From Candidatus Taenariivivens baikalensis (GTDB lineage Bacteria > Omnitrophota > Omnitrophia > Omnitrophales > Aquincolibacteriaceae): 64,000 bases of DNA. Below, piece by piece: positions 26,800 to 38,179 of this stretch. Positions within the stretch are counted from its first letter, which is position 1; every line of letters begins with the position of its first letter. The notes under the pieces are model-generated. The model saw only the letters and a program-made list of their open reading frames with translations. It had not been told where the DNA came from and did not search any database. The stretch is from contig SICL01000005.1 in assembly GCA_009691445.1 (NCBI GenBank), forward strand, positions 2,446-66,445. Direction: 5' to 3'. A program made the position numbers and the translations under genes.

Positions 26800-26981
26800 A
26801 TTCTCCCCATTTTTTTTCTTCAGCCTCTTAGGTCCGCATTTCGTAGGTAGAAAGAAACAAATTTGTAGATATTTTTTATAATAACGATTAATTAATATTA
26901 AAATAGTCATATTATCGCCAAAACGGGCGAAAAATAAAAAAAAACAGGTTGGCATGTTAATTGTAGTAATAGGTTTATCTT

Positions 26982-29900
26982 ATGAGAAACCGAAGGGTAG
27001 AATTACTGACGCATTTTGGGAGCATTGGTTCAAGCCTAAAACAGGGTGCTTTTTCATGTCCGGATAATAAACGCATTAAAAAAGAATTTAAAACCAGTAC
27101 CCGCTTATCTTTTCCAAAGTTTTCTCTCCATCGGTTGACCTATGATATCTCCAAGCCCCGTCCCTCACTAAAATTCCTGTCCTTCGTCCTGCTTTTGACA
27201 TTCTCCATTCAGGCCTTCGGCTGGGCGGAGACCGGACAAGTCTTCCCGGGATCGATTCGAATGCATCCGGTGGAAAATATTTTTCCGGAAGTGACGCAAG
27301 CGCCGAGCTCTTTTTTTATCCCGCCGTCCTTCGGAGAAATAAAAAAATCATTCACAGGATCCCGGGAAGAAAAAATTATCCTGATCCAGGACGCTCATGT
27401 TCATGAAGAGGCGCAGAGGAATATCGCACAAATGCTAAATTTTCTTTCCCGGGAGAAGAGGCTTCACCAGATTTATGTTGAAGGGGCTGAAGGTGTGATC
27501 GATATGACGCCTTATTCCTTTTTCCCTGATCTGAAGATCCGCCAGGAAACGGCGGATTATTTCCTCACAAAAGGAAGGCTCACTGGGGCGGAATACGCCG
27601 CCATCGTTACCACACCGGTATTATCCCTTTATGGTATTGAAAACCGCCAGGTCTATGAAAATCACCGGAAGGTTTATTTGGAAGGAATTGAAATCCAGAA
27701 AAAAAATCAGGCAATTCTGGAACCGCTTGGGAAGGCCCTTAAAGAAATGGCCCGTTTTGCCATGTCGCCGGAAGTCATGGAGTTTTACCGCAAGACAGGG
27801 TTTTTAGAACCCCAAGAAAAGGACTGGAATCTTTACTTTGACGAATTGCTTCGACAAGCTGGATTTCTGGGAATTGCTATTGATTCGGATTCGCAGATGA
27901 AAACCATGGAACGCCTTTCGGCACTTGGAAAAGAGATTGATTTGAAAAATCCGGATGCGGATCTTAAAAAGTTTCCTGAAACTGAAAAAACCCGGCAAGG
28001 CAGGCTTCAATACCAGGAATATCTCCGGCTTTCCAAGAAAATTTCCGGGGATTTTTTTACGGAAGCCTACGGACTTGAAAAAAAAATTAAGAGGATGCTT
28101 TTAAAGACTCCGGAGGAAAAACGGCTGAATGATTTTTTGGAAGTGGTGGAAATTTACAGAAAATTTTTTGATTTTTCCCTAACGACTCAGGAAGTGGAAT
28201 GGTTTTATTCCCGTCGTTTGAAATGGGACATGAAAGCCCTGCGTGATTTCTTGACGCCTCTGCTGAAGCGTTATCACTTCACCTACGAACTTCCTTTGTC
28301 TCTGGAGTCCATGGATCAGGATCTGTTGCGGATAGAAAAATTCTACCTTTTAGCTTTGGACCGTGATCGTATTCTGATTCAAAATGCTATTGGACACATG
28401 AAGACGACGGGCCTTAAACAAAGTGCGGTTATCACCGGTGGTTTTCATACGCCCGGGATTGAAAAATTTCTCCGGGAACAGGGCTATTCTTATGTTGTGG
28501 TGAGTCCCCGCATGACTTCCATCCCAGATGTTAAAAAGCAAGAAGCTCTCTACCGGCAAGCCGTTCTAGGACGTCCTTTGCTTGTAGAGAAAATTCTTGT
28601 TTCCCTGGATCTGTCGCGCCAAGCGCCGATGAAGGATTTGCAGTATCAAATGACGCCATGGCTGATGACACCCAATCCAAAATTTTCTTATCCATTTATC
28701 TGGCTTGAGACGGTAAGAGGTATTTTTAAATCAGGAAATCCAGACGTATTGTTTCATCGCCTTAAGATTGCGGCGGACAAGCTTCCTCCTGGTTCCAGAA
28801 AAGAGGCAGATGCGGTTTATCATGAGTTAGAAGGGGGCGTTCTTCAATCTTCAGAATCCGGAATGCAATATTATTGGAGAAAGATGTCGCAAGGAATTTT
28901 TTTGCGGCTTACAGCGGGCAGTAACAAAAAAATACCGAACCGCTCAAGAGGGGGGAAAAGCGGCAAAGAAATTTTCCCCCTGATTGATTTTGGTCATGAC
29001 TGGTTGGAAGGCGATCAAGTTGATTCCGATCTGGTCTCTAATGAAGTTGTGAGGATTCTATCCTCCGATTTGCCGTCACGAATCCCGTTGTTGATGGGAC
29101 GAAGCAGTGATTCATTCCAAAAACGTTCCGAAGTGCGAAGTCCATCCGTGACTTCAGCTCTCAAGCGCGGTACGAGGACGACCGCCGATTTAAATCTCCA
29201 GTTAGACGATTTGTGGAAGCCCATGGATGCTGAATTAGAAAAAGCGACTGGTGTTTCCTTAGACCGGCGTGCTTCGGGGGAGACTTTGTCGGGAGCTGCG
29301 GTCGGTGAAGATTATCTGGATAAAGCCTATGTCGTTGCTTTTTTGTGGGGACTAGGCTGGACGACACTTTCGCTGTTCCACATTTTTCCAGTCACCTTTA
29401 TTTCAGGGGTCCTGTTTTTTTGGGCCTTTACACTTGGAAACTTTCTTTTTAAGATTTTTGCCCATGAATGGGTGCATGCTTTTTTTGCCCGAGTATTTGG
29501 CGCTAAAGAAGCCTTAACGATTAAAAATTTAACCGGAAATCTCGGATGGGATTTTCTAGGGGGAATGGTCCTGTTTCCCTTGCTTCGGTATCCCCGGGTT
29601 AATGTGCCGTCGATTCAAGGGACTCTGCGCGAAACCTTTGCACTGAAAGTGGCCTTTCCGGTCCATCTGATGGCAGTTGCAGCGCTCTACTTACACCGCG
29701 GAGAAGTTTTGGATTGGCTTACTCCCTTAGTCAGCGGCATTACTTCGGATCCTTTCCTTCTTTCCTGGCTCCTTTTTAGTTTTATCGGAGGCGGGATCTT
29801 ATCGGTCGCCGAAGGGTTTTACTCTGATTATTTAAACAAAAAACGAGAATCGGGCGAGCTTGCCTGCGGAGTCTCCTCGGTGATCACGATTCTTCGTCCG

Positions 29901-32900
29901 GACGGAGAGGCCCTGCGCATTCATTTTGATTACGGCTATGACAAAACAGATTTCGAAATCTTTATGGAAGGGGCGGAGAATCAATCGCGTCATCAAAAAG
30001 GAATTCACGACGGACGTTTGGGAGACACCATTGAGTTTCGCCGTAAGCGATTAAGAAAAATCCTGAGTGAAGTTGCTCCTGACATTGAAGTGCCCGAGCG
30101 GCTTTTTGACAATTACTTCCGGATTGTGGACAAAGTTCGCGACCGGGGAGACCAGGCGAGCGGGGAAGTCTCCATGGTCACGGCCGGAGGAGGAAGGGTT
30201 ATTTTTGAAGTCACCGGACACGGACGCTTTTTAAGCGCGGGAACCATGAGTCAAGAAAACGCTCAGCTTCATCAATGGTCTCCCACTGAAGAAATTAATT
30301 ATGTGGGCGTGAACCAGGGCAAGTATGAAGTGCTAAGGCGCAACCGGGCCCTTTATGTTCCGCATAACGGCGACGGCAATGTGTTTAAGGTTTCGGGCCG
30401 GTGGCTGGGAACAGGGCTCGTAAGAACGCTTCTCTTTAATGTTTTTCATATGAAGCATCCCGCGAGCTCGGATACTCCGATAGTTGCGGGATTTATGGAA
30501 TATTTTTTGACCCAGGGGAGTCTGAAGTTTTCCGCGCGGTTTGCGTTTGCAGAAACCATGACAGAGCTGCCCGCGTCTTCCCCGGAATCAATTAAGGGAT
30601 GGTTCAAGGACAAATGGGCGAGATTTAAAGAGCGCCGGGGTTGGTACAATTTTAGCCGTTCGATTTATCCTTCTCCCGAACAGTTGAGCGTGTGGGAAAG
30701 AGAAGCGTTTTTGCCGGCTTTCCGGAGATTTGCCTCTTCCGGCGGACAAGCCCCTTCCGGTTTTTATCTGTCGTCCATGTCTCCCGCAGATCGTCGAACC
30801 TTAGCGGATTTATTTGAGCGTGAGATCCTGAAAAAAGCGGACTTGTTTGTTCAGCCGGTTTTTTTCGATCCAGCTAAGCGAAAGTTGTTTTTAGAAACCA
30901 TGGTCAATGCTTTTTGCGACCAGGATTTTGAGCAGGCAAGTTTGATGGCGAAAAAAAGAATGAAAGGGACTTTTGGGGTGCGGCCTGTTTATTCCCTTGA
31001 GCCGGGGACGATGATCGCGATTTCGGACAGCCAGGGAATGTTTTTTGGCATTAATCCGGGTGAGACCTCACAGCAGGGTCCTGAAGTTTACGCAGCTTCC
31101 GAACCAGCGGCGTTTAAGGAACGTTTCGAGGTCAACGGACGTTTGCAGCAGCTCCCTTACCGGATTGGCCTTAATTCGACACGAGGCGATGTGGTGATCA
31201 TGAAGTTTGAAAATAATCCTCTTCGCAAACCGACGGAACCTGCCCTGGGAGTTTATGGATACGCGACCAATGAAAAGAGTGACCAGCATCCCCTGGGCCG
31301 GCCCTTAACGGACCGGGAGCTTTATGAAATGACGGCTTTGATTCCCGGCAATCCGATGCTGAGTGTTCCGGAGCCCAAAAAAGACGGCAAGGCCACAGTC
31401 GCCCATGATCTTGAGAAAATTTCGGGGGTTGTGGCCAGGATTGACGCGGATTGGCAGCAAAACGATGCGCTACCGGTTTTGGAGCAGAGTTTCAACCGTC
31501 AAAGCGGTTTTGAGTTTCTGCGTCTGCTCATGGTGCTTGAAGCGTTTAAAAGGCTCCAGGCAGCAACGGGACGTCTGCTTTCCGATCCTAAAGACCGCGC
31601 TCGGATTCAGAAAAAGTTTTTCGCCTTGATCACTCTTTTTTATTTTGGCAATACTTCGGGGCAGAGGATCACTCAGAGTGCATTTCAAACCCGGTATCTT
31701 AAAATTTTCAATTTTGAGCTTCAACAGATTTTGGGACCTTCCGCCGCACCCGCGTACAACCGGTTCGAGGATTTAAAAGGCCTGGATGATCTACTCCCAG
31801 GCACTAAAGAAGTGGACATCTTGATTCCGGCCGTCCATATCAGTCTTGTAAGCGCCGTTAAAATCAAGGCGCGTCTTGAAAAGTGTTTTCCGATTCTCAA
31901 TATCCAGCTTCCGGATGCTAATCATCTTTTGGAATCTTTGAAACAGAAAGTGATTTATCAAGGCGACCGGAAGGTCGTGGTGAAAGACAAGAATGAAGTG
32001 GAGTACATCATTACCGCGGATACGATCAGCATTCACGATTCCATTTCCGGAATGACCTTTCCAACTTATAAAACTTCAGAACCAATGGAAGTCCTTTTGA
32101 ATGCGTTAAATCAGAATCAGGGGACACCCTTTTTGGGCCAGAGAGTTTGGGGATTCGCCGGAGAGCATGACACCTTGATGGCGGAAAGTGCCTTAGGGCA
32201 GGGTTTTTATAAAAACGCTCCGTTTAAACGTCATACCTTCAGCACGTTGAGCGGACCGGGAGAAGCGGAACCTGCGACCGTGACTTCCATCTCTCAGGAT
32301 CATACGCTGACCCGCCTCAGCGAATTTTTGGTCACTCAAATGCAGCGGGCTTACGGCACGGAGGTCCGGCCTTTTGGGACGCTGGTGGATCAAGATATTT
32401 TACAAACAACCAATGAATTTATCCGTGAATCTCAGGAAAAGCATCTTCCGGAAATAACAAATAAAAACGGGTCGGTGGCCCGGCAGTTTTATCAAGTCGG
32501 AAAAGGACTGCTCTGGTATCTGCTGGAAAATCCGATCGGGACGCTTGCGGCTATTTTAATTTTTGCTGTGGCGATGAGCTTTGGAATCTCCATTGCGCCC
32601 TCGGCCACCATCATTGATCCGCTGATGCAGGTTTTTCCAGCATTGCGGGAAATCTCGTGGGTGATGAAATTGATCGGCCTTTTCTTTAATGTCACCTTTG
32701 TGCCAGGCTTGGGATATGTGATCGGACGTGTGATTGGAAAAGCGATGGGGAGATATCCGACTTCTCTGCGTTTCGGAGGAACGAAAATTTTTATCGCTTC
32801 CGATTTTCATGAAAGCTCTTCATTTCGCATTGAGCAGTTTGTCATGAAGCTTTGGTCCAAGGCCTGGGGATTTATGGATGTTAATACCTTTTTTGGAGAT

Positions 32901-35021
32901 AACACGAGCAGTTCTGCGCATAATCATACGGCCCGTGGTCCGCATAAAAATGCCTTTATTTTGATGATGGGTCCTGAAAGCGGGCTTGTGACCTACGACG
33001 GCCACGACGGAGCAAAAAATATGTCGAAAGGCCAAGCGGGAGGGAATCAGAGCAAGTCGCGGGGAGTCGGCCCCGTCTTTTTGTGGGTGGCAAGGCAGAA
33101 TGCCGAAGGAAGTCTGACGCCCGGCCTTCAAGATCCATATGCCTCGACTTATTTGCGCAAAGGTCAAACTCGCCAGCCCAAAGCGGTTTATCAGCTCGTC
33201 CTGCCGGCGTTCAGCCGTCCTGTGAACCTGCCGGAAACGACGATTCAAAAATTTACTGCTCAAATCACGGAACGGCTCGGCCTTGACGCGCCGCGGCAGG
33301 CACTATTGACGCAAAGACTTCGTGACTGGAGGACGCTTTACTTGAGTCAATATCAATACAATGTGCCGCAGATGATTCTGGATATCGCCACTGAACTTAA
33401 AATTACGCATGAAACTAAGCTTGTTTTTTTTCAGAAAACCCTGCGGACTTTTCACGGGAAGATAGAAATCCTGGAAGAGTTTTTTGAAAATAGCGTGAGC
33501 GCGATTGAGCGGGAAGTGGCGGCTTATGCGTTGATGCATCAAATAACCGAATGGGCAAGCTTGGGCGGACGACTTTGGAATTTCAATGAAACCCATTCTC
33601 GCCTCAAACGGGCCTCCACGGCCGGTCCAGTGGACGGAGAAGCGGTCACTCAGTTGATTGCCAATATCCGACGAGAATTTGAAATTTTAACGGATAATGC
33701 CCACCTTCATGTTCCGCTTACGCAAGTGGAAAAGGCGGAACTACCCTTTCATATTATTGATCCGGTTCGATTAAAAGCTCCGGTTCCGGAAGAAGTCAGT
33801 TCGATGGTCACCGTGCAAAATTCGAGAAAAAAAGCTAATCAATTACTTAGACAGCTCCATGATCAAGTCCCAACTCGTTATGACGTTTTGGTCAGCGCCG
33901 TCAAAAAATTCATTTTAACGGAAGAGGGGAACATTGAGAGAGTATTTAACCGGCTGGGAGATTCTCTGATCAATGGGGATACGATGGTGGTTGATTCACG
34001 CCTAAAAAATGATATCGCCCGTTTTCAGACAATGACTCGATTATCCAGTTATTCCCAAAACAAGCTTGTTCAAGAGTTGATGGCGGTAGTCCCGGGATAT
34101 CTCGATGCACTTTTCGTTCATTTTTCAACGCATCACCATGATGCGTTGCGTGTCTCTTTCGATCTGAAACCAGTTTTAAATCGTCCGGCTCCGGCTGATT
34201 CCGGAGAGCAACCTGCCCAAAGTTATATGGCACCGCCACCCAAAAAAATCCGCAAGACTCCCTCCTCGGGAGCTCGCCGGAAAAAGGCGGAAAGGGTTTC
34301 TGGGACAGCGAAATCCCGAACAATTCTAAAACCAGTGATTGCGGGCGGGAAAACTCACACGGAAGTAGCGAAGGGGAACGCGGATAGCCGCTCTGAACTT
34401 CGTCTGACAAGCGAGTTATCTCAAGCGGTTGACGTTCGATCGCAAATAGAGTTTGAAACCGCTCCGGTTATCCGTGAGATGCGCCTGCGCGCAAGCAAGA
34501 TCGAGCGGATGCTTCAGACCTGGGGACAAAATCCAAAAGTACTGGCGAAGCTTGGAATTTCGCGGACGGTGCCTGGCGTTGGGTATTACTTCCTGGACTT
34601 CAGCCAGCAATCAGGAATCGGGACGATTGAGAACTTGCTTCGTTTCCGCAATCCGGAAGTCAAAGCCGTGGTTTTTGCCGGTGCTGCCGAACGTTCTGAA
34701 TTAAGAAAAACATTTTCTCGTCAAGTTCAGGCCGAAGCGCTTCTTCTTCCGGAAGCCAGTATCGAAACATTTCTCGGAGAAAAAATGTCCGAGCTAGGAT
34801 TCGGCTCGGATCAAGTGATCCAGGTTCAGGGACTGCACGCGGACCGTCTTGATGAAGAGCAGATCAGGGCCTTGCGTGGAAGTCTTACGCTTGCGCTGGG
34901 GCGGATTGTGATTGACTCTGAACGTTCCGTCCACGGTGCGGGAAGAGAAGTTTCCTTCAAGAATATTCTGGATGCCGTGAATCAGGCGGCTTATCAGGCG
35001 GTCGTTCGTCAATCCGCGTAA
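26982..35021 (+). CDS. Giant 2,679-aa polytopic membrane protein of unknown function (TraB/GumN-like motif pair, HExxH-containing TM cluster, G/R-rich low-complexity segment).
   Basis: An uninterrupted 8,040-nt ORF in a roughly 50% GC background cannot arise by chance. It has an N-terminal hydrophobic segment (LKFLSFVLLLTFSIQAFGWA), a 5-helix TM cluster around 29320-29830 containing FAHEWVHAFFARVFG, and a second TM cluster around 32500-32740. No Walker, kinase or other canonical motif was found. Confidence 0.6.
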   Translation: MRNRRVELLTHFGSIGSSLKQGAFSCPDNKRIKKEFKTSTRLSFPKFSLHRLTYDISKPRPSLKFLSFVLLLTFSIQAFGWAETGQVFPGSIRMHPVENIFPEVTQAPSSFFIPPSFGEIKKSFTGSREEKIILIQDAHVHEEAQRNIAQMLNFLSREKRLHQIYVEGAEGVIDMTPYSFFPDLKIRQETADYFLTKGRLTGAEYAAIVTTPVLSLYGIENRQVYENHRKVYLEGIEIQKKNQAILEPLGKALKEMARFAMSPEVMEFYRKTGFLEPQEKDWNLYFDELLRQAGFLGIAIDSDSQMKTMERLSALGKEIDLKNPDADLKKFPETEKTRQGRLQYQEYLRLSKKISGDFFTEAYGLEKKIKRMLLKTPEEKRLNDFLEVVEIYRKFFDFSLTTQEVEWFYSRRLKWDMKALRDFLTPLLKRYHFTYELPLSLESMDQDLLRIEKFYLLALDRDRILIQNAIGHMKTTGLKQSAVITGGFHTPGIEKFLREQGYSYVVVSPRMTSIPDVKKQEALYRQAVLGRPLLVEKILVSLDLSRQAPMKDLQYQMTPWLMTPNPKFSYPFIWLETVRGIFKSGNPDVLFHRLKIAADKLPPGSRKEADAVYHELEGGVLQSSESGMQYYWRKMSQGIFLRLTAGSNKKIPNRSRGGKSGKEIFPLIDFGHDWLEGDQVDSDLVSNEVVRILSSDLPSRIPLLMGRSSDSFQKRSEVRSPSVTSALKRGTRTTADLNLQLDDLWKPMDAELEKATGVSLDRRASGETLSGAAVGEDYLDKAYVVAFLWGLGWTTLSLFHIFPVTFISGVLFFWAFTLGNFLFKIFAHEWVHAFFARVFGAKEALTIKNLTGNLGWDFLGGMVLFPLLRYPRVNVPSIQGTLRETFALKVAFPVHLMAVAALYLHRGEVLDWLTPLVSGITSDPFLLSWLLFSFIGGGILSVAEGFYSDYLNKKRESGELACGVSSVITILRPDGEALRIHFDYGYDKTDFEIFMEGAENQSRHQKGIHDGRLGDTIEFRRKRLRKILSEVAPDIEVPERLFDNYFRIVDKVRDRGDQASGEVSMVTAGGGRVIFEVTGHGRFLSAGTMSQENAQLHQWSPTEEINYVGVNQGKYEVLRRNRALYVPHNGDGNVFKVSGRWLGTGLVRTLLFNVFHMKHPASSDTPIVAGFMEYFLTQGSLKFSARFAFAETMTELPASSPESIKGWFKDKWARFKERRGWYNFSRSIYPSPEQLSVWEREAFLPAFRRFASSGGQAPSGFYLSSMSPADRRTLADLFEREILKKADLFVQPVFFDPAKRKLFLETMVNAFCDQDFEQASLMAKKRMKGTFGVRPVYSLEPGTMIAISDSQGMFFGINPGETSQQGPEVYAASEPAAFKERFEVNGRLQQLPYRIGLNSTRGDVVIMKFENNPLRKPTEPALGVYGYATNEKSDQHPLGRPLTDRELYEMTALIPGNPMLSVPEPKKDGKATVAHDLEKISGVVARIDADWQQNDALPVLEQSFNRQSGFEFLRLLMVLEAFKRLQAATGRLLSDPKDRARIQKKFFALITLFYFGNTSGQRITQSAFQTRYLKIFNFELQQILGPSAAPAYNRFEDLKGLDDLLPGTKEVDILIPAVHISLVSAVKIKARLEKCFPILNIQLPDANHLLESLKQKVIYQGDRKVVVKDKNEVEYIITADTISIHDSISGMTFPTYKTSEPMEVLLNALNQNQGTPFLGQRVWGFAGEHDTLMAESALGQGFYKNAPFKRHTFSTLSGPGEAEPATVTSISQDHTLTRLSEFLVTQMQRAYGTEVRPFGTLVDQDILQTTNEFIRESQEKHLPEITNKNGSVARQFYQVGKGLLWYLLENPIGTLAAILIFAVAMSFGISIAPSATIIDPLMQVFPALREISWVMKLIGLFFNVTFVPGLGYVIGRVIGKAMGRYPTSLRFGGTKIFIASDFHESSSFRIEQFVMKLWSKAWGFMDVNTFFGDNTSSSAHNHTARGPHKNAFILMMGPESGLVTYDGHDGAKNMSKGQAGGNQSKSRGVGPVFLWVARQNAEGSLTPGLQDPYASTYLRKGQTRQPKAVYQLVLPAFSRPVNLPETTIQKFTAQITERLGLDAPRQALLTQRLRDWRTLYLSQYQYNVPQMILDIATELKITHETKLVFFQKTLRTFHGKIEILEEFFENSVSAIEREVAAYALMHQITEWASLGGRLWNFNETHSRLKRASTAGPVDGEAVTQLIANIRREFEILTDNAHLHVPLTQVEKAELPFHIIDPVRLKAPVPEEVSSMVTVQNSRKKANQLLRQLHDQVPTRYDVLVSAVKKFILTEEGNIERVFNRLGDSLINGDTMVVDSRLKNDIARFQTMTRLSSYSQNKLVQELMAVVPGYLDALFVHFSTHHHDALRVSFDLKPVLNRPAPADSGEQPAQSYMAPPPKKIRKTPSSGARRKKAERVSGTAKSRTILKPVIAGGKTHTEVAKGNADSRSELRLTSELSQAVDVRSQIEFETAPVIREMRLRASKIERMLQTWGQNPKVLAKLGISRTVPGVGYYFLDFSQQSGIGTIENLLRFRNPEVKAVVFAGAAERSELRKTFSRQVQAEALLLPEASIETFLGEKMSELGFGSDQVIQVQGLHADRLDEEQIRALRGSLTLALGRIVIDSERSVHGAGREVSFKNILDAVNQAAYQAVVRQSA

Positions 35022-36573: not shown

Positions 36574-36659
36574 GGGTAAAGCCTATTTACTTCGTCCATT
36601 GACAGGCATGTCCAAAACGTATACACTTCTTTACAACTGTATACACTTTGGACATACCC

Positions 36660-37262
36660 ATGAAAACCAAGAAAGAAGAATTGATAGCGGAATTTAAGCG
36701 TCACAAGGGAATCCTGCGCTTCTCAGCCATGCTCAAGTCCGGATTCCACCGCCTTGAGATCAAATCGCTTATTGAGTCGGGAGAAGTCGAAAAAATTGGC
36801 CGGGGAATTTACCGCCTTAAAAACGGTCCAAGCCTTTCTAACCCTGACCTTGTTACCGTCGCACTCCAAGCCCCGAAAGGGGTGATATGCCTTATTTCCG
36901 CCCTCAGTTACCACCATGCCACGGATGAAGTGCCGCACAGCATTTATGTGGCGATACCGCGAGGAGTTCGCGCAACCAAGATTGATTACCCGCCAGTGCA
37001 ATACTTTCGCTATGACCCAACGGTTTGGAAGAATGGGATTGAAACGCATACCATAGACGGACATCCAGTTAAAATCTACAGCCTTGCAAAGACCGTTGCC
37101 GACTGTTTCAAATATCGCAACAAGATCGGCCTCGACGTGGCCCTCCAAGCCCTGAAACTTGCTGTAACCGAAAAGAAAACTAAACCAACCGAAATCATGC
37201 GCTTCGCCATAATATGCCGCGTGGATAAAGTCATCAGACCTTATGTGGAGTCTCTCCTTTGA
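36660..37262 (+). CDS. Type IV toxin-antitoxin AbiEi-family antitoxin / transcriptional regulator.
   Basis: N-terminal winged-helix GILRFSAMLKSG...IEKIGRGIYRL plus a C-terminal domain typical of AbiEi. ATG at 36660. The track start at 36648 is TTG. Direct repeat GTATACACT x2 at 36620-36649, immediately upstream. Confidence 0.7.
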   Translation: MKTKKEELIAEFKRHKGILRFSAMLKSGFHRLEIKSLIESGEVEKIGRGIYRLKNGPSLSNPDLVTVALQAPKGVICLISALSYHHATDEVPHSIYVAIPRGVRATKIDYPPVQYFRYDPTVWKNGIETHTIDGHPVKIYSLAKTVADCFKYRNKIGLDVALQALKLAVTEKKTKPTEIMRFAIICRVDKVIRPYVESLL

Positions 37263-38179
37263 AGCCCGACATTAAAAATATCGAAGCGTCCGTCAAGGGA
37301 CGCCTCCAGAACAAGGCTAAAGAAACAAACCGTCCTTACTCGGAAGTCCTCCAGTATTACGGAATGGAACGGTTTCTTTACCGTTTCTCGCAGTCCGATT
37401 ATGCCGGGCAATTCATTCTCAAAGGTGCGTTGATGTTCACCGTGTGGGACGTTCCCGCGCGAAGGACAACGGTGGATATTGATTTTCTAGGCCGTATTGA
37501 TAACAAAGTTGAAAGTATCGAAGGCGTCATTCGCGATGTCTGCAAGATAAAAGTACCGGCTGACGGACTTGTTTTTGACGCTAAGACTGTGAAGAGTAAA
37601 CGAATCAAGGAAGATGCTGATTATGAGGGCGTGCGCGTCAATTTTTTCGGCTTTCTCGAAAAATCAAAAATCCCAATCCAGATCGATGTCGGCTTCGGCG
37701 ATGTGATAACTCCCAAGGCTTCAACGATTGACTACCCAACGATTCTGAATTTTCCGGCACCGCGCCTTGAGGGTTACACTTTTGAAAGTGTTGTGGCCGA
37801 GAAATTTGAAGCCATGATCAAGTTGGGCCTCCTTAATAGCCGCATGAAAGACTTTTATGACATTTGGCTGATGACCCGGCAAATGAACTTTGAGGGAAAA
37901 AAGCTGGCCGCCGCAATCAAGGCAACCTTCAAGAATCGGGAAACACCGCTTCCTGCGAACGTTCCGCTTTTCGCCGAAGAAATTTACGACGAGAAATCAA
38001 ACAACGAAGCCATGTGGAAAGCCTTTCTGCGCAAGAAGCAAATCAAAACCGCACCCGATAGCCTTGCTGAGGTTGCCCGAGGCATCGAGGTTTTTCTTTC
38101 GGAACCCGTGAAGGCTATCACAACCGGCAAGGAATCATCAAAGACGTGGCACGCGCCGGGGCCGTGGGTTAGAACCTGA
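37259..38179 (+). CDS. AbiEii/AbiGii-family nucleotidyltransferase toxin (DUF1814).
   Basis: 306 aa. Overlaps the AbiEi stop by 4 nt. GFGD...IDVGFGDVITP NTase-like motifs and a DUF1814-type C-terminus. Confidence 0.75.
   Translation: MKPDIKNIEASVKGRLQNKAKETNRPYSEVLQYYGMERFLYRFSQSDYAGQFILKGALMFTVWDVPARRTTVDIDFLGRIDNKVESIEGVIRDVCKIKVPADGLVFDAKTVKSKRIKEDADYEGVRVNFFGFLEKSKIPIQIDVGFGDVITPKASTIDYPTILNFPAPRLEGYTFESVVAEKFEAMIKLGLLNSRMKDFYDIWLMTRQMNFEGKKLAAAIKATFKNRETPLPANVPLFAEEIYDEKSNNEAMWKAFLRKKQIKTAPDSLAEVARGIEVFLSEPVKAITTGKESSKTWHAPGPWVRT

Follow-up and report, generated by a model that had tools for sequence, protein, structure and literature searches.

A candidate TIKI-superfamily head domain at the N terminus of many very long Omnitrophota proteins

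Introduction

In Tiki and PrgY, an extracytoplasmic domain is anchored by transmembrane segments, and Tiki is metal dependent; the haem-binding protein ChaN is also extracytoplasmic. In FHA and CdiA, a conserved N-terminal module placed behind the signal peptide, the TPS domain, fronts very long and highly variable exoproteins. In this report, we focused on the N-terminal domain—hereafter the head—of a protein encoded by a giant open reading frame (ORF) in a 64,000-nt stretch of contig SICL01000005.1 from Candidatus Taenariivivens baikalensis, the whole of which we refer to as the window. This head is an unannotated domain common to more than 10,000 long, otherwise unrelated proteins, nearly all of them from Omnitrophota, and its predicted fold and invariant residues point to the superfamily that contains Tiki, ChaN and the erythromycin esterases (Ere).

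EreC, HopBA1, Bcr135 and ChaN are listed as structures of the TIKI superfamily (PMC6254334). The catalytic set of EreC has been defined experimentally (E47/H50/E78/R261/H289), and the Ere mechanism is metal independent, with His/Glu activation of a water molecule and an Arg that stabilises the oxyanion (PMC7979712). RRSP (the DUF5 domain of MARTX) has an active site made of two His, two Glu and an Arg, in which E3930 follows H3902 by 28 residues and H4030 follows R4001 by 29 (PMC6254334). The bacteria of the phylum Omnitrophota, known for their very long proteins, have not been cultured; they are often ultra-small and may be predators. A preprint of 2023 that deals with giant genes of the phylum states that the N-terminal regions of the products "generally lack identifiable domains," and a 2026 preprint on complete Omnitrophota genomes, which treats topology, makes no mention of the head domain. 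Our literature search found no paper connecting Omnitrophota with Ere, TraB or Tiki, and the head family has no Pfam or NCBIfam model.

Results

The product of the giant ORF has the same sequence as the NCBI entry [quoted passage not shown] and its head belongs to a large family. Homologues of aa 85-560 number 70 at E<=1e-3 (22-44% identity) and come from Omnitrophota and a few Endomicrobia; most have no recorded Pfam domain, and a few carry PF23202 or PF21018. When 1.84 billion proteins were searched with a profile of the head, the number of 50%-identity cluster representatives matched was 10,385 at E<=1e-3 and 7,503 at E<=1e-30. The 150 best matches almost all cover residues ~10-580 of proteins that are 1,000-7,853 aa long. 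A scan of one genome per species gave at least 537 confirmed head loci, nearly all labelled Omnitrophota, with more than one copy in some genomes; the window holds a single copy. The initial annotation had singled out a pair of motifs in this region, and the pair is real: the two segments are the exact cores, DAHVH and GGFHTPG, of two motifs inside the conserved domain (Table 1). In a 53-sequence alignment with a mean column identity of ~18%, the invariant positions are Q136, H139, E167, G218, E220, R461, G486, G487, F488, H489 and P509. Both motifs are the most conserved parts of the domain because their positions are among these invariants, and their conservation is far beyond chance. Conservation of the head stops ~70 residues past GGFH.

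The fold was predicted with AlphaFold for the window head (predicted local distance difference test (pLDDT) score 87, predicted template-modelling score 0.84) and for a stand-alone relative, P0010, that is 26% identical to it (pLDDT 91). Both models agree on the same succession of elements, namely a β-hairpin, β1, a helix, β2, helices, β3, a helical lobe of ~220-260 aa, a long helix, β4, a helix and β5. The predicted core is a parallel-sheet α/β core flanked by helices, which resembles that of solved superfamily members. Within aa 110-221, the hairpin (IPxxxGxI) precedes β1 and its QDAH, a helix, β2 ending in VEG, further helices, and β3 ending in GIE; Q136, D137 and H139 sit at the C-terminal end of β1, the strand itself covering residues 131-137 in protein numbering (strand E47-53 of the modelled fragment). 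In the second motif, β4 leads into the invariant G486-G487-F488-H489. H139, E167, E220 and H489 are placed at the C-terminal edges of strands in both models, with R461 on the long helix before β4. When the window model was compared by Foldseek with 350,542 PDB chains, its top match was EreC (6xcs_A; E 8.3e-3, probability 0.93, 454 aligned columns), and the second match had a probability of 0.08. For the P0010 model, the top 50 matches include EreC twice, HopBA1, Bcr135 and ChaN (2G5G), and the highest probabilities of the list are found among these entries. That list is dominated by matches to the helical lobe. Its lowest E-values (0.08-0.4, not significant) belong to many components of α-pore-forming toxins (AhlB, SmhB and MakE) and to other long-helix proteins; the toxin matches presumably stem from the long helices of the modelled P0010 lobe (aa ~167-466).

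The invariant residues of the head match the Ere catalytic set in order and spacing, and four of the five are identical, the exception being Q136 at the position of EreC E47. H139, the equivalent of EreC H50, is proposed as a candidate general base; E167 has counterparts in EreC E78, EreB E74 and RRSP E3930, R461 in EreC R261 and RRSP R4001, and H489 in EreC H289, and the GIE of the head parallels an invariant G-I-D (D133) of the Ere family. The first His is followed by the Glu at 28 residues in the head as in EreB, EreC, Bcr135 (H85/E113) and RRSP, and the Arg by the second His at 28 residues in the head and EreC and at 29 in EreB and RRSP. Among 193 heads selected for carrying both motifs, the former spacing holds in all 193 and the latter in 149. 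As expected for the superfamily, an invariant His comes just after β1, a Glu ends β2, a basic residue precedes the late catalytic strand and GGFH follows β4. The first motif is not the G-x-x-H that the initial annotation had seen in it: it reads Q-D-A-H, without a Gly, and QDAH replaces the Gly/Glu of GxxH and GExxH. The distance of 350 residues between H139 and H489 is not typical of the superfamily either, as had been supposed, since known families have shorter distances (242 in EreB); the enlarged helical insertion accounts for the difference. This insertion is larger still in most relatives (~260 aa), in which the two His are ~390-400 residues apart. Weak PAH_ZNF598 and DUF1722 Pfam matches fall in this lobe.

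Several results weigh against placing the head in the superfamily, or against reading it as an enzyme. None of the member families gives a significant profile match. The whole 2,679-aa protein has zero matches in Pfam and NCBIfam, even at E<=10, and searches of PDB sequences by phmmer and hmmsearch with the head, the family profile and a core-only profile gave spurious matches only, such as Mediator 31 and RuvA. Profile-profile comparison, to which the initial annotation had looked for confirmation, did not provide it: hhalign was not significant for the family against a single EreB or YbaP sequence, for the family against a 37-sequence Ere alignment, for 193 aligned heads against 122 Ere sequences, EreA and a Bacillus homologue among them (P 0.04-0.12 for the Ere alignments), or against 48 YbaP relatives (P 0.09), the TraB profile being shallow at 69-100% identity. 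Reversed-sequence nulls (14-15) were modestly lower than the real comparisons (19-25). The P0010 model has no significant Foldseek match, every E being >=0.08, and Foldseek TM-scores are low (0.2-0.29, with a root-mean-square deviation >20 Å), values that fit, on the models, a larger lobe held in a different orientation. ChaN membership fails as well, since P0010 scores 12.8 bits against PF04187 with a gathering threshold of 27.7, and the best E of the family is 0.0029; moreover, the family that Pfam brings nearest to the head is that of ChaN, a protein that binds haem and is not a proven enzyme.

Below these thresholds, there is nonetheless a pattern. PF04187 ("Haem-binding uptake, Tiki superfamily, ChaN") appears in nine of 53 full-length members and in seven of 27 core-only sequences from which the helical lobe had been removed, where all other families are singletons, and no other Pfam family turns up repeatedly in the catalytic core; residues 436-482 of P0010, the RD...GGFH region, align to positions 159-204 of its 213, at the C-terminal end. 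The top local alignments of the non-significant hhalign comparisons pair the RD of the head with the RD of Ere, and its VE with the Glu at E74. That the resemblance to TIKI and Ere proteins is convergent or due to chance, the head being a novel α/β plus helical domain unrelated to known hydrolases, is in our view very unlikely. Chance would account for the non-significance of all profile-based tests, for TM-scores of 0.2-0.27 and for the lack of anything below E 0.08 with the P0010 model, but not easily for five motif positions that share order, secondary-structure contexts and a 28/28 spacing, for a helical lobe inserted at the same topological position, for EreC as the single outstanding match of the window model, for five superfamily entries in the P0010 top 50 out of all PDB chains compared, or for ChaN matches that recur, sub-threshold, at the correct region. 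Membership in the superfamily is therefore supported by fold, motif logic and spacing, although not proven, and homology of fold at this level is very probable.

PF01963 is absent among the 25 families listed for the 53 members, PF05139 is absent among the families listed for them, and the window protein matches neither at E<=10. The head does not qualify as a member of PF01963, PF05139 or PF04187. It is best described as founding a family of its own, and Ere and ChaN are nearer to it than TraB/GumN/Tiki proper. The proposed link to TraB/GumN/Tiki proteins hence stands at superfamily level, through the EreC fold match and the Ere-type residues, but TraB/GumN is not the closest branch. The similarities with Ere enzymes (EreA/B/C/D, Bcr135/136; PF05139) are a His after β1, a Glu at +28, an acidic residue after β3, a helical lobe at the same topological position, and a helix with Arg or Lys followed 28-29 residues on by a His. 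The differences are QDAH instead of GExxH, a lobe that is ~100-140 aa longer, and context: Ere enzymes are stand-alone proteins of ~420 aa, whereas the head follows a signal peptide and fronts proteins of 1,000 to >7,800 aa. The head thus resembles an Ere enzyme without being a member of PF05139. ChaN (PF04187; PDB 2G5G), with which the head shares its recurrent core Pfam match and the RD...GGFH region, differs in being a protein of ~255 residues without a large helical insertion or a giant tail. The notion that metal dependence is a rule of the superfamily, which would have made the head a metal-dependent hydrolase, does not hold, Ere and RRSP being metal independent.

The head most likely lies outside the cytoplasm, as had been proposed for the N terminus of the giant protein; we place it there because of the family-wide Sec signal peptides. 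The N termini of 194 family members have the form of a signal peptide, with a net charge that goes from +2.7 ahead of the hydrophobic core to -0.4 behind it (in 93% of them the preceding charge is the more positive) and sites of the ...FA/xP type at the end of the core. In the window protein, the hydrophobic core ends in AFGWA, immediately before ETG. The annotated ATG puts 62 residues before this core (26982-27167), compared with ~5-25 in relatives, and an in-frame TTG at 27135 would yield a signal peptide of canonical length, MTYDISKPRPSLKFLSFVLLLTFSIQAFGWA, followed by ETG; the region upstream of the ORF (26800-26980) is very AT-rich. The initial annotation also had the head sitting on a membrane scaffold, which is plausible from the hydrophobic segments at aa 794-944 and 1843-1915.

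An extracytoplasmic head with hydrophobic segments downstream, in a fold and with motifs that match at superfamily level, calls to mind a membrane-tethered protease of the TraB/PrgY/Tiki type that would act on peptide signals or surface proteins and whose target would be a separate exported substrate instead of the attached tail; Tiki/TraB peptidases have been proposed elsewhere as leader-peptide or maturation proteases (PMC8939145). Like the head, the TraB family (PF01963, including E. coli YbaP) has a His after β1, a Glu after β2, a basic residue and a late-strand GxH. However, its first-motif Gly is absent from the head, its domain of ~250 aa has no large insertion to compare with that of ~220 aa in the head, and the His-to-Glu spacing in YbaP, counted on the sequence, is 26 and not 28. 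Together with the lack of any PF01963 match and the non-significant YbaP comparison, this makes such a role distinctly unlikely, the more so as many relatives have, by a crude Kyte-Doolittle scan, the signal peptide as their only hydrophobic segment, and so are not obviously tethered, and as a single copy per long protein is hard to reconcile with a trans-acting enzyme.

The architecture of head-bearing genes was read from 80 loci of the species-representative scan, with 8-kb flanks. The head is N-terminal in all 80, and about three quarters of the ORFs exceed 800 aa or run off the flank. At ~15 of the loci, the head is instead a stand-alone gene of ~520 aa, and directly after eight of ten stand-alone heads examined there is a same-strand ORF of 959 to >2,650 aa, which in seven of these eight cases has its own start and signal peptide (the split pairs are at L130, L139, L141, L145, L148, L151 and L158, and also at L137, where no signal peptide is visible). 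Because stand-alone heads precede long secreted ORFs, the head and a long tail are linked by either fusion or adjacency, and the split loci are natural separated versions of the head-tail fusion. We considered frameshift artefacts as the origin of stand-alone heads; this was ruled out by the starts and signal peptides of the downstream ORFs. In some genomes, two long head-related ORFs stand in same-strand tandem (loci L084, L097, L140, for their upstream ORFs, and L103), and in such tandems the ORF upstream of the head-bearing gene partly matches the head profile.

This architecture would also suit a head that has kept a TIKI/ChaN fold without being an enzyme and serves as an N-terminal handling module for secretion targeting, anchoring, or ligand or haem binding, in a role like that of the TPS domain or ChaN. 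It is always directly behind the signal peptide, with a single copy per long protein and tails of unrelated sequence after it, can be a separate gene directly upstream of a long protein, and has a binding protein, ChaN, as its sole recurrent core Pfam signal. We nevertheless regard this explanation as unlikely, since a full catalytic set (His, Glu at +28, Arg and second His) is invariant in an alignment so divergent, whereas PMT, a superfamily member without endopeptidase activity, does not have the 2His/2Glu set (PMC6254334). The likeness to the TPS domain is a functional analogy only: that domain has an unrelated β-helix fold, is non-catalytic and requires a dedicated TpsB partner.

The tail (aa 561-2679, nt 28662-35018) is an orphan. 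From aa 780 on it matches only itself among 5.8 billion proteins, and from aa 561 on it shows no similarity to the tails of ~290 relatives. Its two large non-membrane regions (aa 940-1843 and 1916-2679) have no match among PDB sequences, and six tail fragments searched against Pfam and NCBIfam gave nothing above noise except a weak match to PF11667 (DUF3267, "putative zincin peptidase"; E 0.096) at an HEWVH sequence. By eye, this HEWVH resembles the HExxH helix of site-2-type proteases, and may mark a second, membrane-embedded peptidase-like module; the relative P0154 has a similar one. An HExxH is found ~260-390 aa after GGFH in 32 of 119 long relatives, many of which (P0072, P0077, P0094, P0099, P0106, P0129, P0146 and others) share a second conserved, soluble module close behind the head, HPGRGG...(L/T)xxE(R/K)xxhhxHExxH, that looks like a small zincin-type motif and is absent from the window protein. 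The tails of P0072 (aa 1868-2111) and P0077 (aa 1503-2098) contain phosphoglucomutase/phosphomannomutase domains, which places a normally cytoplasmic sugar-phosphate enzyme behind a signal peptide. The GC content of the tail (48.8%) agrees with that of the window (47.8%), and that of the head is 44.3%.

The neighbours of the giant gene are ordinary, and none shows a functional link to it: thiolase, FadB-like enzyme, HGLS-family protein and CYTH protein genes on its 5' side, and an MFS transporter gene and an AbiEi/AbiEii pair on its 3' side. This last pair, an AbiEi antitoxin and an AbiEii nucleotidyltransferase toxin two genes downstream, is a type IV toxin-antitoxin or abortive-infection module.

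Table 1. Coordinates of features of the giant gene, its product and its surroundings in the window
Feature	Position (nt)	Strand	Basis or detail
Giant ORF, 2,679 aa	26982..35021	+	ORF translation
Hydrophobic core of Sec signal peptide or signal anchor, aa 63-82, LKFLSFVLLLTFSIQAFGWA then ETG	27168..27227	+	Sequence, family-wide pattern
Conserved head domain, aa ~110-560	27309..28661	+	Homologue search, alignment, AlphaFold model
N-terminal half of α/β core, aa 110-221	27309..27644	+	DSSP of model and invariant columns
Motif 1, IILIQDAHVHEE, aa 132-143	27375..27410	+	Core DAHVH, aa 137-141, 27390-27404
IYVEGAEG	27471..27494	+	E167 invariant, end of β2, 28 residues past H139
LYGIEN	27627..27644	+	G218 and E220 invariant, end of β3
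All-helical insertion (lobe) of ~220 aa, aa 222-440	27645..28301	+	Between β3 and Arg helix, model
FYLLALDRDRILIQN	28341..28385	+	R461 invariant, long helix before β4, 28 residues ahead of H489
Motif 2, AVITGGFHTPGIEKFL, aa 482-497	28425..28472	+	Core GGFHTPG, aa 486-492, 28437-28457
SYVVVSP, last core strand β5	28488..28508	+	P509 invariant
First hydrophobic cluster, aa 794-827, 886-904, 924-944	29361..29813	+	~260 aa past head
HEWVH (HExxH), aa 828-832, in FKIFAHEWVHAFFARVFG	29463-29477	+	Abuts end of first hydrophobic segment, ~340 aa past head
Second hydrophobic cluster, aa 1843-1878, 1897-1915	32508..32726	+	Hydrophobicity
AbiEi/AbiEii pair	36648-38179

Discussion

The explanation that best accommodates these findings as a whole, which we hold with moderate confidence, is that the head is a Sec-exported module of the catalytic type in the TIKI superfamily, founding a new, large and almost Omnitrophota-specific family, and that it acts on the polypeptide that accompanies it. 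By analogy with Ere enzymes and RRSP, the head is likely to be an active hydrolase. Its active site would be assembled at the C-terminal edges of the core strands from H139, held by Q136 and D137, E167, R461 and H489, with E220 as an extra acidic residue. In a reaction modelled on that of EreC, H139, oriented by Q136 and D137, would deprotonate a water held by E167 and H489, the water would attack an ester or peptide carbonyl, and R461 would stabilise the oxyanion or tetrahedral intermediate, the helical lobe closing over the substrate.

We infer the substrate of the head and a role in cis, like catalysis itself, from its placement and its residues. The accompanying polypeptide would be matured, trimmed or released by the head, either in the periplasm or at the cell surface. 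The accompanying polypeptide is favoured as substrate because the head comes first after the signal peptide, occurs once per long protein, and is fused to or lies upstream of unrelated tails; a free small molecule is less likely. This role is the weakest step of the argument, and action of the head on its own or a neighbouring tail is put forward tentatively, as a possibility somewhat less probable than its alternatives taken together.

A more far-reaching version is that the head is a universal self-acting maturation protease or esterase, which would define an unrecognised class of long surface proteins in Omnitrophota and some Elusimicrobiota. After Sec export, it would cut or trim the hypervariable tail attached to it, or the product of the neighbouring gene, and so release or activate surface modules. 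We consider this rather unlikely in so general a form. If true, the head would do at the N terminus what autoprocessing domains do in MARTX toxins, and it would offer a way into how Omnitrophota deploy their giant proteins. A TIKI fold inside a very large secreted multidomain protein is already known from RRSP and from the C1-C2 region of PMT, with the difference that RRSP sits internally, as one of many cargo effectors, and is delivered into host cells, while the head is an invariant N-terminal module. RRSP is absent among the Foldseek matches listed for both models.

For the biology of Omnitrophota, it matters that many of their long proteins share one N-terminal domain, predicted to be well folded, with a complete set of hydrolase-type residues. 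The head can be used as a marker to find and classify such proteins, and as a soluble domain of ~450 aa it is amenable to expression and assay. It also provides a concrete hypothesis for the maturation of giant surface proteins, through N-terminal processing or handling. The Ere/ChaN/Tiki superfamily would gain a new and large branch through the head, one that has an unusual QDAH motif and a helical lobe of increased size.

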